Origin: Chthoniobacteraceae bacterium | Lineage (GTDB): Bacteria > Verrucomicrobiota > Verrucomicrobiia > Chthoniobacterales > Chthoniobacteraceae | Direction: 5' to 3' | Length of the DNA stretch: 22,352 bases | NCBI GenBank assembly: GCA_031409655.1 | Contig: JANNXQ010000271.1 | Coordinates: forward strand, 1 to 22,352 | Shown: positions 11,924-21,781 of the stretch, one piece after another | How the letters are laid out: the number at the start of each line of letters is the position of its first letter | Position numbering within the stretch: the first letter of the stretch is position 1 | Program-made: the position numbers and the translations under genes | Notes under the pieces: model-generated | Database searches by the model: none | Seen by the model: only the letters and a program-made list of their open reading frames with translations | What the model was told of the DNA's origin: nothing

Positions 11924-12000
11924 TGGCGGAGCCTACGGGACTCGAACCCGCAACCTCCGCCGTGACAGGGCGGCGCTCTAACCAATTGAGCTAAGGCTCC
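11924..12000 (-). tRNA. tRNA-Asp(GTC)
   Basis: Reverse complement is GGAGCCTTAGCTCAATTGGTTAGAGCGCCGCCCTGTCACGGCGGAGGTTGCGGGTTCGAGTCCCGTAGGCTCCGCCA: 77 nt cloverleaf, GTC anticodon, TTCGA T-loop, encoded CCA. Confidence 0.98.
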
Positions 12001-12017
12001 TTTGAAAGGAGGGCGGG

Positions 12018-12046
12018 AGACTAGGGCGCGTGCCTGGGAGCGGCAA
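12018..12046 (-). promoter_or_regulatory. Sigma70-type promoter of tRNA-Asp
   Basis: Minus-strand TTGCCG-N17-TAGTCT followed by a GC-rich discriminator (CCCGCCC), 17 nt upstream of the tRNA. Confidence 0.65.
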
Positions 12047-17496: not shown

Positions 17497-18753
17497 TCAC
17501 CGTCGTCGCCCGCCACCCCCACGCCCACCGCCGCCGCCGCCGCGCGATCCTCCTCCGCCACGCTGCCGACCGGCCTCATACCGTCGCTCGTCGCGATCCG
17601 GCTCCGTCTGCATCGGCGCCGGCAGATTGTAGTCAAATCCCTCCGCCTTTTTCCGCACCACGCCGCGCCCGATGAACCGCTCCAGCGTCCGCAGCGCCGC
17701 ATGATCTTCCGGCGTCACAAAGCTGATCGCATCGCCGATCGCCTGCGCCCGTCCGGTGCGCCCGATGCGATGCACGTAGTCCTCCGAGTGCATCGGAAAG
17801 TCGAAATTCACGACGTGTGAAATGCCGTCCACATCGATCCCGCGCGCCGCGATATCCGTCGCCACCAGCACCCGCACCACCCCGGACTTAAAGTCGCGCA
17901 GCGCCCGCAGCCGCTGATTCTGCGAGCGATTCGAGTGCAGCGTCCCCGTCGTGATCCCGCTGCTCTCCAGCTTCCGCGCCACGCGATCCGCCCCATGTTT
18001 GGTGCGGGTAAAGACGAGCACCGTATTCAGCGATGCATCCTTCAAAAGATGCGCAAGCAGCGCCGGCTTGAGATGCTTCGGCACTTCATAGGCGAGTTGC
18101 GTCACCGTCTCCGCGGGATTCGCGCGACGCCCGATCTCCACGGTCTTCGGCGAGCGCTGAAATTGATGCGTGAGCGTTTGGATCTCGTGCGACATCGTCG
18201 CCGAGAAGAGCAGCGTCTGCCGCTTCACGGGCAGCGCTTTCACGATCTGCCGGATGGAAGGCAGGAAGCCCATGTCCAGCATCCGGTCCGCTTCATCCAG
18301 CACCAGAAAACTCAGCGGGGAAAAATTCGCAAAGCGCATCAGATCGAGAAGCCGCCCCGGCGTCGCGATCACGATATCCGTGCCCGACTTCAGCGCCTCG
18401 ATCTGCGGCCGCTCGCCGACTCCGCCAAAGACCGTCGCCATCCGCAGCGGCAGATGTTTGCCGTAAGCGCGCACATTTTCCTCGATCTGCACCACCAGTT
18501 CCCGCGTCGGCGCCACGATCAGCGCCCGAGTCCCGCGGCGCGTCCCATCCCCGAGCATCCCCCCGAGTTTCGCGAGGATCGGCAGAGTGAATGCGGCCGT
18601 CTTCCCCGTGCCCGTCTGCGCGATCCCGATCAAGTCATGCCCCGCGAGAATCTCCGGGATGGCCGCCAACTGAATGGGCGTCGGCTCCGTGTAACCAGCT
18701 TCCTGGATAGCTTTGAGAATAGAGTCGCCGAGACCAAGGGTACGAAATGGCAT
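17497..18753 (-). CDS. DEAD-box RNA helicase (RhlE-like)
   Basis: Q motif PTPIQ, AQTGTGKT, PTREL, TPGRL, DEADRMLDMGF, SAT, ARGID, HRIGRTGRA and an RGG-rich tail. Confidence 0.96.
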   Translation of the reverse strand: MPFRTLGLGDSILKAIQEAGYTEPTPIQLAAIPEILAGHDLIGIAQTGTGKTAAFTLPILAKLGGMLGDGTRRGTRALIVAPTRELVVQIEENVRAYGKHLPLRMATVFGGVGERPQIEALKSGTDIVIATPGRLLDLMRFANFSPLSFLVLDEADRMLDMGFLPSIRQIVKALPVKRQTLLFSATMSHEIQTLTHQFQRSPKTVEIGRRANPAETVTQLAYEVPKHLKPALLAHLLKDASLNTVLVFTRTKHGADRVARKLESSGITTGTLHSNRSQNQRLRALRDFKSGVVRVLVATDIAARGIDVDGISHVVNFDFPMHSEDYVHRIGRTGRAQAIGDAISFVTPEDHAALRTLERFIGRGVVRKKAEGFDYNLPAPMQTEPDRDERRYEAGRQRGGGGSRGGGGGGRGGGGRRR

Positions 18754-18938
18754 AGCCCGCCACTATGGGGCCGCGTCGTGGAATGGCACGCACCATTGTC
18801 GGGCAAAGTGGCGGGGGAATTCGGAGCGAGCGGAGAACGACGGGCCCTGGGGGAAAAAGGCCGCCCTCGTCCTGCGCAGGAATAAAACGGCCCGCCGTTC
18901 GTCGCATCATCGCAGTCCTCAACCTCCACACTACCACC

Positions 18939-19556
18939 ATGAAATCATCCTCCGCACTCGCTGCACTCCTCGCCAGTCTCATCCCCGCCACCGTCTTCGC
19001 CATGGACGCTGAAACGCCGTCCCTCCTAACCGCCGCTTCCACCAGGAGCGCCGCCTTCTCCCTCAGCTCCGTCCCGGCTTCGCTCCCCTCGGCGGACGAC
19101 CCGATCATCGCCCTCGCCACCGCGCCCTATGCGCGCGCCGGCTGGCGGGCGACGCTCTCCACCCGCGCCCACGGCGTCCGCGGCACCGTCACCATCGTCG
19201 ATGCCGACACCTTTCGCGTGGATGACTTCTTCTACGACGGCGGCGGCATCAATGTTCACTTCATCCTCGCCGCCCTCGACGACAACGCCACCTTCCGCAC
19301 CACCCGCCTCGTCACCGATCTGAATCTCCTCGGCTCCCCGCAAAACGGTGGCTCCCTCACCATCGACCTCCCCGCCGGCACGAACTTCGACGGCTACAAC
19401 GCCATTTCCCTGTGGTGCCTGCCGGCGCAGGCCAACTTCGGTTCCGGCACGTTCGCCAATCCGGTGCCTGAGCCCGCCAGCGCCGCCCTGCTCACGCTCG
19501 GCGCCCTCACCCTCGGCTCCCGCCGCCGGCGCCAGGCGGTCGAGCAAAGATCGTAG
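18939..19556 (+). CDS. DM13 domain protein with PEP-CTERM sorting signal
   Basis: Signal peptide MKSSSALAALLASLIPATVFA; HGVRGTVTIVD...F.YDGGG...ISLWC....ANFG (DM13); C-terminal PVPEPASAALLTLGALTLGSRRRR. Start assigned to ATG 18939. Confidence 0.88.
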   Translation: MKSSSALAALLASLIPATVFAMDAETPSLLTAASTRSAAFSLSSVPASLPSADDPIIALATAPYARAGWRATLSTRAHGVRGTVTIVDADTFRVDDFFYDGGGINVHFILAALDDNATFRTTRLVTDLNLLGSPQNGGSLTIDLPAGTNFDGYNAISLWCLPAQANFGSGTFANPVPEPASAALLTLGALTLGSRRRRQAVEQRS

Positions 19557-19807
19557 AACCCCAGCCCCTCAGCTTCTCCGGCCGCACGATCAGCGAATCC
19601 CATTCAGGCAAACATCCTACCCACCTACCGCGCAACCCAGTGGCCCCGCGCCCTGGCCTGCCCAAACTCCGCAGTTTGGGCACGAGGAAAAAAGGCCTAC
19701 TCCAGCCCCGCCAACCGCTTCGTCCGCCTCCGCGTCGTCCGCCACCCCTGACGGGACGAGCGGTTAAAATTCCACGGCGAAGGCGCGCCGCCGGTGCCTC
19801 CGGACTT

Positions 19808-19861
19808 GTTCAACAAGGGTTGCTTGCCGGCTCCGCGGCAAAGCAACCTTCCGGGTTAGGC
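19808..19861 (-). other. attC-like recombination site
   Basis: Minus strand GCCTAAC-ccggaaGGTTGCtTTGCCG-cggagc-CGGCAAGCAACCctt-GTTGAAC: RYYYAAC...GTTRRRY ends around an imperfect palindrome with one extra base. 54 bp with non-canonical spacers. Confidence 0.55.
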
Positions 19862-19883
19862 GTTGCGGGTGTTGCGAAAGAGT

Positions 19884-20165
19884 TCATGGAGTCGGATTCC
19901 GATTAGACCGGTTCGCATCAGAAATGCCCCGGAACAAAAGCCAACCAACGAGCCCGGACGCGAGCATGATGCAACCGAAGTAAGTCCCAACATCGTGGCT
20001 GCCACCGAAAAAGGGCTTCCAGCCGGAGTAAGCACAGCCCACACATGCGAGCAGGGACGTGGCTACCGAGCCGATGCGAAAGTAGATGGTTGTATTCGTG
20101 ATCGCGCCCCAAAGACCAAGACCTATGGCGGCAGCAATTCCGACGAGGGCGATTGTATCGTTCAT
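19884..20165 (-). CDS. Small membrane protein (about 3 TM helices), probable gene-cassette ORF
   Basis: 93 aa with three hydrophobic stretches; A-rich leader CAAACAAAACAAAC-ATG; visibly lower GC than its neighbours. Confidence 0.7.
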   Translation of the reverse strand: MNDTIALVGIAAAIGLGLWGAITNTTIYFRIGSVATSLLACVGCAYSGWKPFFGGSHDVGTYFGCIMLASGLVGWLLFRGISDANRSNRNPTP

Positions 20166-20201
20166 GTTTGTTTTGTTTGGGAGCGGCCTCCGAGGCGCGT
20201 A

Positions 20202-20228
20202 GCGACGCCTAACTTGTTAATATACGAC
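20202..20228 (-). other. Cassette core site / attI-like site
   Basis: Minus strand GTCGTATATTAACAA-GTTAGGC-GTCGC: a GTTRRRY core preceded by an AT-rich half-site, 11/12 complementary to the GCAACGCCTAAC end of the cassette. Confidence 0.5.
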
Positions 20229-20495
20229 TGCGACTTTCGAGCCAGGGGCATTGTGGGGCCAGCGCCAGTCATTTATTGAAGGGGGGGCGGCTGGGCGCAT
20301 GGGGCTATGGGTTAGTGGGCTCGGGGGCGGGGGTCAATGAAGTTCGCCCGAGCCTGCGGGAAAGGGTGAAGCGCCCTCGGGTGGCGGGTGCGGGCGGGGA
20401 TGCGGGGGGTGGCCGGGGGTAAGTTCCGGGGCGCTGCTGGCTCTCAAGGGGGGCGGGGTATGATCTGTCTTCGAAAAGGTGGACAGGGCTAATGG

Positions 20496-21377
20496 TTATT
20501 TGATGGAGGTTAGAGGTGGATGGTTCGGGGGGAACATTTCTTTTTCGAACTGGAGCGGAGAGCGGTAGCCCAGCGCGCTGTGGCGGCGGTGCGGATTGTA
20601 GAAGGTCTCGATGTAATCGAAGATCCGCAGTTGTGCGGCGGCGCGGGTGGGTGGGATCTGACCGCGGAGGCCTTCGGTCTTGAGCGTGGCCACGAAGCTT
20701 TCGGCCAGGGCGTTGTCGTAAGGATTGGCCGTGCGGCTCATGCTGCGGGTGACGCCCCAGGCGGCGGTGAGTTGCACGAAGTCGGCGGCGGCGTATTGCA
20801 CGCCGCGATCGCTGTGGTGGAGCAGGCCGGGTGGTGGCGGCTGGCGTTGGGTAGCCAGCGTGAAGGTGGTGGTGGTCAGCTCCACGCGCATGTCCTCGCG
20901 GCAGTGGTGAGCGACGCAGCAGCGCGTGCAGCCATCGAGAGTAAAGGCGAGAAAGAGCCAGCCTTCGCCGGTTTCGATGTAAGTAAAATCGCTCTGCCAG
21001 ACCATGCCGGGCCGATCGGGCGCGGGCACTTTGGCGAGCCAGTTTTCGGCGATCCTGTGCGGATGGCGGCTGTCGGTCGTCGTGGGCCGGAAGCGCCGTT
21101 TTTGAGCGGGTCGCAGGCGCTGCTCGCGCATGAGCCGGGCGATCCGGTTCTTGCCGCAGCGCTCGCCGAGATCGCGCAGATCGGCCTGCACCCGCAGCGG
21201 CCCGTAGGTCTCGCGGCTACGCTCGAAGCTCTCGGCGATGAGCGAGCCGAGCACCGCATCACGCTGGCGCCGGGCTCGGCGCGGCTTGTGGCGATGGGCG
21301 TGGAAGCCGCTTTTGCTGACCTCGAGCGCCTCGGCCAGCGCGCCCACCGGAAATTGCTGACGGAGCTTGTCCATCAC
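20496..21377 (-). CDS. IS3-family transposase OrfB (DDE catalytic domain)
   Basis: YG..RV...L, WQSDFTYI, HHSDRGVQY, DNALAESF..TLKTE and FYN..RRHSALGY.SP motifs; DDE triad intact. Confidence 0.95.
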   Translation of the reverse strand: MMDKLRQQFPVGALAEALEVSKSGFHAHRHKPRRARRQRDAVLGSLIAESFERSRETYGPLRVQADLRDLGERCGKNRIARLMREQRLRPAQKRRFRPTTTDSRHPHRIAENWLAKVPAPDRPGMVWQSDFTYIETGEGWLFLAFTLDGCTRCCVAHHCREDMRVELTTTTFTLATQRQPPPPGLLHHSDRGVQYAAADFVQLTAAWGVTRSMSRTANPYDNALAESFVATLKTEGLRGQIPPTRAAAQLRIFDYIETFYNPHRRHSALGYRSPLQFEKEMFPPNHPPLTSIK

Positions 21378-21697
21378 CGTGAAACGTGGGCGGGCACCTC
21401 GGCCGACAAGATGCCCAACGCTTTTTTTAAGATATCACGCTGCTGGCGCAGGTAATCGTTTTCCGCGCGCAGCCGGCGCAACTCGCGCTGCTCCGGGCTC
21501 TCTGCATCGAGGGTTTTCGGCTGAGCCAGCCCCTGGCCGGCCCTGGCCTTCTTGACCCATTCCCCCAGCGACCAGAGCGAGACGCCCAGATCGCGAGAGA
21601 CCTCGCTCTGGCTGCGTCCGCCCGTGACCAGGGCGACGGCGTTTTCCTTGAACTGCCGGTCGTAACGCCGACCGGATTTGATGCTGTGATCTGACAT
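21374..21697 (-). CDS. IS3-family transposase OrfA (HTH)
   Basis: RRYDRQFKENAV, HTH VSRDLGVS..SL..W, coiled coil ELRRLRAEN..L...RDILKKA. Start assigned to ATG 21697. Confidence 0.93.
   Translation of the reverse strand: MSDHSIKSGRRYDRQFKENAVALVTGGRSQSEVSRDLGVSLWSLGEWVKKARAGQGLAQPKTLDAESPEQRELRRLRAENDYLRQQRDILKKALGILSAEVPAHVSR
21392..21428 (-). promoter_or_regulatory. Programmed -1 ribosomal frameshift signal (A AAA AAA plus hairpin)
   Basis: TTA AAA AAA G in orfA, then 5 nt, then GGGCATCTTG-TCGGC-CGAGGTGCCC; the -1 frame is open into orfB. Confidence 0.85.
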
Positions 21698-21781
21698 GGC
21701 TTTGCTTTTCGTCTTTGAAAGCCCTGTCCGCAAAATCGAAGACACTCCAGTATGAGGTTGGCTGGGGTGCCCCGGACGCGC

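Follow-up and report, generated by a model that had tools for sequence, protein, structure and literature searches.

The window examined here, a stretch of 22,352 nucleotides from a Chthoniobacteraceae bacterium, very probably holds a decayed integron head, in which a stub of intI is followed by an attI site, a single gene cassette and the stump of an IS91-family element that targets attC sites. The 54-bp imperfect hairpin behind the cassette, which the original prediction had taken for a short variant attC, is, judged from related copies, the R'' box of the cassette fused to the ori-side end of such an element, inserted backwards. The cassette is real and so is its attI; there is no new class of attC. 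The features of the locus are as follows.

19693–19751, + strand: a 59-bp piece of the 3' end of a gene flanking the sister locus C69 (94% identity of 19693–19868 to C69:22650–22825)
19752–19854, + strand: ori-side end of an IS91-family element, about 100 nt, opposite to the cassette (58/60 identical to two-ended inserts); its parts are an inner box GTTCAAC (19808–19814), a 3-nt spacer, a stem-loop (19818–19848) and a 6-nt spacer
19855–19861, − strand: R'' box of the cassette attC, GCCTAAC, with the IS91-like element inserted at its AAC
19856–20212, − strand: cassette body (TT of R' through AA of R''; 357 bp), with complementary ends; the rest of the attC is gone
19884–20165, − strand: ORF of 93 aa, hydrophobic, family unassigned
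20213–20230, − strand: attI core of a second integron class, with the crossover G|TT between 20213 and 20212, placed from copies and relatives
20231–20336, no strand: attI upstream region, containing degenerate repeats of a motif (alignment of 10 copies)
20337–20400, + strand: decayed 5' end of intI, with a start codon and a stop after 10 codons; assigned from its position, with an approximate 3' limit
20461–21750, − strand: IS3-family element, a bystander in the flank common to C69 (rve and HTH_21 Pfam matches)

The hairpin was found at 19808–19861, with the unpaired spacers of 6 and 3 nt (8 and 5 counted from the box) that had been described for it. On the cassette strand it is framed by GCCTAAC and GTTGAAC, which are imperfectly complementary. 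Nine copies occur in the source genome, and in eight of these the conservation continues past the G/TT at 19814. Since the sequence beyond it is conserved, this G/TT is not where cassettes end, and the cassette boundary originally placed there had to be given up. The copy on contig C226 departs from the consensus directly after G/TT, as an IntI crossover would have it. Nearly all the copies from 32 metagenome loci and family genomes were likewise conserved past the supposed R'. Read on the opposite strand, the conserved stretch lies behind the C terminus of a Y2 transposase (355 nt from the PF04986 match at locus L151), and the same stretch follows a Y2 fragment, 57% identical, at C29:6220–6393 of the source genome. 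The type of hairpin tracks the transposon subfamily and not the cassette. About 100 nt of the element is kept in the window; the remainder of the element and of the attC appears to have been deleted.

Local attC sites matching the pattern were 91–172 bp long, the spacing being 5/8 in 15 of 20 and 5/7 in 4 of 20. The hairpin has the 5/8 geometry only on the element strand, and its asymmetry is reversed on the cassette strand. The bulged base of the hairpin is missing from three members of the family (L015, L156, and L016). By definition, a SALIN has a single attC and no other att site or integrase nearby; here an attI is present, and the hairpin is not the attC of the cassette. Nor is the element an IS1111-attC element or a group IIC-attC intron, the linked gene being that of a Y2 transposase. 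An Rfam scan of 19500–20500 gave a single chance match and no RNA family.

A group II intron end was considered as the source of the hairpin and rejected; no reverse transcriptase was found in the assembly, and the hairpin does not have the look of domain V/VI. Remnants of group II intron 3' ends do occur in the source genome, but at the left junctions of other cassettes (C45:2264–2372 and C41:2168–2276, both on the − strand; C41:3270–3357; C226:1470–1556; and C29 near 7310). Two of them scored above the cut-off for RF00029, and others were seen in L041, L043, and L051. In contrast to IIC-attC introns, they have the same sense as the cassettes and adjoin the cassette starts, at the position of R'. 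In a separate observation, collapsed attC sites of about 36–45 bp, seemingly deleted between L'' and L', lie between cassettes of small arrays (C41 near 5119 and 4342 and C45 near 1689 in the source genome; also L073). At L158 (G203:C15, near 1506 and 1986), an L'-like box and the start of another cassette come no more than about 60 nt after a hairpin of the IS end; the arrangement looks as though the stump had been remade as a site resembling attC.

The transposase is absent from the window, and the IS91 assignment comes from homologous elements, in which it scored 322 bits on NF033538 (cut-off 125) and a PF04986 match was obtained. Two complete copies, L175 (2584 nt) and L177 (2553 nt), encode a tyrosine recombinase and then a Y2 HUH transposase. 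In both, the hairpin end is at an R'' box, and beyond the other end come AAC, 5 nt, and an L''-like box. Two-ended derivatives of 462 and 470 nt (L039 and L058, respectively), 58/60 identical to the end in the window, sit between GCCT and AAC of attC sites that are otherwise complete; without its insert, L039 is an attC of 118 bp with the R boxes paired. In complete or near-complete copies a subterminal palindrome, the putative oriIS, lies about 270–360 nt behind the tnp stop. The ter ends read GTTC and then AAC, resembling the IS91-type terIS 4-mer (GTTC or CTCG) in sequence. The best NCBIfam match of the element recombinase was TIGR02249, but at 176 bits against a cut-off of 265, and all three recombinases that were aligned have a gap of 31 columns, lacking the IntI-specific insertion before the W-x-FP motif.

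A protein search with a piece of the Y2 transposase matched at 12 more positions, spread over 9 of 150 genomes. At eight of these there is a GGGCTTGTTCAAC-like box, followed by a short spacer, a stem-loop, a spacer and, in reverse, the R'' box of a cassette; of the others, L163 shows no end of this kind within 700 nt, one reaches the end of its contig, and two gave no alignment. Between subfamilies, stem pairs are altered on both sides, and 39 of 54 raw candidates retain the 6/3 register. Complete elements were recovered from other subfamilies but not from that of the window, so the link between the window and the element rests on fragments and mini-derivatives. The source genome (assembly 94.9% complete) yielded transposase fragments, no ter end and no matching recombinase; two matches to the ter pattern, on C257 and C298, lacked the flanking stem and were rejected. 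It may be noted that C148:21250–21895 of this genome carries the N-terminal half of an IS91-family transposase, interrupted by another element near the contig end. In several genomes, the left end of an element that we call IS110-like from the look of its N terminus joins cassette starts at the R' position (C29 near 62770 in the source genome, L014, L151, L156, and L032), a further att-targeting element.

Comparison of the copies indicates that the element goes into the R'' box in reverse orientation, at its AAC; each junction then carries an AAC, and what remains of the attC is displaced by 2.5 kb. Because insertion is at this AAC, the junction in the window is at 19855/19856 and not at 19814; the 399-bp circle once predicted, together with its junction, found no support. 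The candidate ends numbered 72, or 54 when made non-redundant, and 51 after three without the motif had been dropped (one on C66 and two on C270 of the source genome). Forty-five of the 51 (43 by script and 2 that the script had mis-registered) come after GCCT, GCCG, GGCT, or GGCG, against a background of 3.3% of AAC in the source genome, and six come after different 4-mers; the copies are related by descent, and these counts are inflated and do not represent independent events. A complementary cassette start was seen upstream of 32 ends, about four of them doubtful. For the metagenome subset, where the search pattern began at AAC, an R''-type 4-mer preceded 18 of 21 ends. Some of the BLAST queries included a few R'' bases, which biases them towards R'' matches; the set found through the transposase protein is free of this bias, and in it all eight ends abut an R''-like box. 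Among 13 ter-like ends outside the source genome, an L''-like box comes next in nine, is doubtful in one and has no attC remainder in three. A few ends lie outside attC (L013 and L054). The RYYY-AAC target of attC breaks the IS91 rule (CTTG, GTTC, or GTCC), for which a T at position 2 has been reported (PMC13181058), and the element is a variant and not a typical member of IS91. The literature searched held hints of the R'' targeting rule and no statement of it; subscription papers, IS databases and supplements may hold one.

The 93-aa ORF has a GC content of 0.56, compared with 0.64 for the window, and its 19-residue Kyte–Doolittle peaks are 2.07, 1.28, and 1.52, in keeping with the lower-GC membrane ORF first described. 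It gave no significant Pfam match. Three homologues with 43–83% identity were found among 5.8 billion proteins and none in the 150 family genomes, and the Atlas search gave no informative match. That the ORF forms an integron cassette is borne out by the ends: GTTAGGCGTCGC begins at 20213 (− strand) and GCAACGCCTAAC stops at 19855 (− strand), and they are complementary at 11 of 12 positions, as had been noticed. Such a complementary partner within 150–1500 nt was found by chance at 18 of 3000 sampled GTTRRRY sites of the source genome. There are no L'', L', or ter motifs within 18700–19860 of the window, and the cassette has probably lost its normal mobility. Elsewhere in the window, 18765–19556 (+ strand) encodes a DM13 domain protein with a PEP-CTERM tail, which is missing beside the helicase in two genomes of the same genus, and a tRNA-like stretch adjoining a kinase gene was noticed in the ORF listing at 11950–12030 (− strand).

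Copies and relatives identify the upstream site as an attI, as its likeness to one had led the original prediction to suspect. Five copies occur in the source genome, with a different cassette behind each. The site had been described as no hairpin; it proved to be the right arm of an imperfect inverted repeat, which is clearest in the copies on C41 and C124. In the 150 family genomes, 20 of 26 non-self matches to a 16-mer of the attI run on into an R'-type box. Allowing one mismatch, the 16-mer is present in 15 of the 150 genomes, and the reversed control in about as many, so that the bare count is no evidence and only the context counts. In eight loci of relatives, the first cassette at the attI ends in R'', 5 nt and GCTGCAG, the left arm of a canonical attC. 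Six of eight named records matching the upstream motif are labelled Chthoniobacteraceae; together with the PEP-CTERM gene beside the locus, they point to a verrucomicrobium of that type as the probable host.

Intact IntI-like genes with a homologous attI upstream, in divergent orientation, were found at 7 of 14 loci with lower-scoring TIGR02249 matches (six clear and one diverged); the other seven loci have no such attI. The seven IntI-like genes (L135–L141) encode proteins 42–44% identical to the IntI on C132, and the L136 protein reaches 269.5 bits, the cut-off for integron integrases being 265, and carries the IntI insertion. A homologous attI is missing upstream of all 30 best-scoring IntI loci, and the site is therefore assigned to a second integron class. 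The source genome has an intact intI on C132 (389 bits against the same cut-off) and no intact intI of the second class. Hence, the description of the locus as solitary and free of integrase stands in that no intact integrase adjoins it, but not for the genome, which has the C132 gene along with the nine copies of the hairpin and five of the attI.

An ATG at 20337, followed by decayed sequence, lies 124 nt from the crossover, the same offset as in homologues. It has the same GTCAATGA context and offset as the recognizable IntI N termini in L050 and L065; the peptide of the window itself is too decayed to match, and the stub is identified by position. Decay of the intI of an integron head explains the window better than the earlier supposition of a stand-alone site that had always depended on an integrase in trans. 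In the upstream region of the C41 copy, the repeated motif is found three times in direct and once in inverted orientation. In the attI regions of L135–L141, and at 20231–20336 of the window, a 12-nt motif in three to four copies runs up to the intI start, and one inverted copy adjoins the core; these may be sites for the integrase or a regulator. Pieces of the C-terminal part of intI, 98% identical to C132, lie at contig ends of the source genome (C275:10831–10965 and C66:70625–70759) and are either further copies or a collapsed repeat. The attI of the C132 integron, which is of another type, is likewise present without its intI on C140 near 2100, with a cassette behind it, and heads cassettes in L034, L035, and L064.

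The sister locus C69 matches the window over 270 bp at 91%, over 181 bp at 94% beyond the IS3 insertion and, past the cargo, over 176 bp, again at 94%; the cargo ORF of C69 is a different one. The IS3-family element has many end copies in the source genome, and the homology with C69 picks up again at 21756. The 19693–19751 junction is bridged by contigs in metagenome runs X3 and X4. Among contigs of four runs from one study, which may be the source of the assembly, the loose ends listed cluster at 19862–19868 and 19799, and none of the 24 ends listed (there were 67 further ends) is at 19813–19814. The summed depth of the X1 contigs was about 950 over the hairpin against 7 over the ORF, in that one study. 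The joints 19865–20206 and 19868–20195 in X1/X4 contigs were rejected as excision events, having unknown letters between them and side lengths of 25–33. No empty site, with the attI joined to the downstream segment, was found in the source genome. The neighbouring helicase gene has different neighbours in two genomes of the same genus, and hence an empty allele is not definable by synteny. The difference in cargo between the window's contig (C271) and C69 could be explained either by a deletion from the stump to an upstream R'' or by recombination between the shared flanks. Inversion of the cargo between attI and stump was rejected, the longest ORF being in the cassette sense in all eight cassettes of the source genome. 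A regular-expression search of this genome for canonical attC gave eight candidates, with only that on C132 convincing.

By analogy with IS91, the element would move as a single-stranded circle. In IS91, only the bottom-strand circle is reported to insert (PMC13181058), and the strand that folds here would be that of the bottom-strand circle. The joined ends of the circle may fold into a mimic of attC, with the GTTCAAC and GTTGAAC boxes paired, the sequence of the stem variable and the spacing fixed. The circle junctions, as predicted, fold with these boxes paired, and the start of the element is complementary to its inner end box. The element would then recognize the folded attC and not a bare tetranucleotide. 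A later deletion may have taken the genes, the ter end and the remainder of the attC, and loss of the latter probably froze the cassette against normal excision by IntI. The AAC shared by the junctions fits a tyrosine recombinase crossover and, equally, a cut by TnpA after NAAC. Our guess as to the catalyst leans, with rather less than even confidence, to the element recombinase acting on a circle made by TnpA; TnpA alone is nearly as likely, and the host IntI is unlikely. It is also possible, and put forward tentatively, that two enzymes divide the work: the HUH transposase would make the attC-mimic circle, the element's own IntI-related recombinase would insert it at the top-strand R'', and the leftover ends would stay reactive. 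These ends would be inverse att sites, and an end re-attacking an upstream R'' would delete the DNA between. If true, this route would explain how C271 and C69 share a platform with different single cassettes between the same attI and stump, as well as the many one-cassette, integrase-free loci of the lineage. It is undescribed in the papers searched.

Three other readings were weighed against insertion by an attC-targeting element. That the hairpin is the cassette's own short variant attC, crossed over at 19814/19813 and captured by an integrase in trans, would agree with the R''- and R'-like boxes framing it, with the intact intI of the genome and with the C226 copy. It is hardly credible given the conservation past G/TT in eight of nine copies, which leads into the Y2 transposase. 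The attC sites of relatives, with their 91–172 bp and 5/8 or 5/7 spacing, argue against it too, as do the reversed asymmetry, the bulged base missing in several members of the family and the presence of the true attC remainder beyond the other end of the insert. L039 and L058 have already largely refuted it.

More can be said for the element being a gene cassette with its own attC and with the recombinase and transposase as its cargo, reverse-integrated at R'' of the top strand by the host IntI, its own enzymes taking no part; we nevertheless consider this improbable. The element does start with GTTGAAC, complementary to the inner end box as in cassettes. Its strand has the 5/8 geometry of local attC, AAC is common to both junctions, the predicted circle junctions fold with R-like boxes paired, and ISShvi3 beside an attC has been described as a cassette-like structure (PMC9229058). 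Against this, in the loci examined it lies in reverse at R'', and no case of normal orientation at R' or attI was seen; it has neither the L''/L' sequence nor the conserved bulge of local attC, and complete copies carry two intact DNA-cutting enzymes. Lastly, a pure IS91 rolling-circle insertion at a short NAAC, with the preference for attC due to sampling or to attC being single-stranded and tolerant of insertions, would account for the shared AAC without a recombinase through cuts after NAAC at the target, ori and ter. The GTTC at the ter end is the ter cleavage 4-mer of IS801 and IS1294 (PMC13181058), and the few ends outside attC would fit as well. A tetranucleotide rule, however, predicts about 3% R''-type contexts where 45 of 51 were seen, and 8 of 8 in the protein-ascertained set, making this reading very unlikely. 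TnpA may still be the catalyst, but with structure-specific targeting.

If the locus is read as the stump of an attC-targeting element behind a genuine cassette, a short hairpin behind a lone cassette, such as is counted as a SALIN, can be the end of a transposon. Genomes of the Verrucomicrobiota type join the evidence for a third attC-homing family, after IS1111-attC elements and group IIC-attC introns, and the tyrosine recombinase found ahead of some IS91 transposases gains a testable role. With just two genes and insertion at a single base of a folded DNA site, so compact a system would be interesting both mechanistically and as a tool. The copy in the window is a dead remnant.

ISShvi3 is a member of IS91 with a tyrosine recombinase upstream, as in the present element. 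ISSod25 is another IS91 member with an upstream tyrosine recombinase, and in 2008 it was reportedly seen with attC sites in Shewanella oneidensis. The IS91 family proper (IS91, IS801, and IS1294) resembles the element in its Y2 HUH transposase (NF033538, PF04986), polar insertion, subterminal palindrome downstream of tnp and GTTC at the upstream end (PMC13181058). It lands at any CTTG or GTTC, whereas the element lands at the R'' box of attC; the element also differs in having ends that are complementary like those of cassettes and a tyrosine recombinase in place of orf121. The accessible part of PMC7923331 adds nothing on IS91.

SALINs and CALINs, like the window, have isolated cassettes far from an intact integrase, and SALINs arise by insertion at attG sites (bioRxiv 10.1101/2022.09.11.507474). 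The left junction in the window, in contrast, is a true attI with an intI stub and not a random attG, and the downstream hairpin is not the attC of the cassette. ISCR28 beside sul4 is similarly IS91-like, with an attC at or directly after its end (PMC12772301). In the accessible text of that report, the attC is read as possible passive cassette cargo, and neither an R'' rule nor a recombinase gene is stated. IS1111-attC elements and group IIC-attC introns, like the element, lie near the 5' end of attC in antisense and part the gene from its attC (PMC3001079). Their enzymes are different, an IS110-type transposase and a reverse transcriptase, respectively, and in the accessible text of that source their ends are not reported as mimics of attC, which those of the present element are predicted to be.
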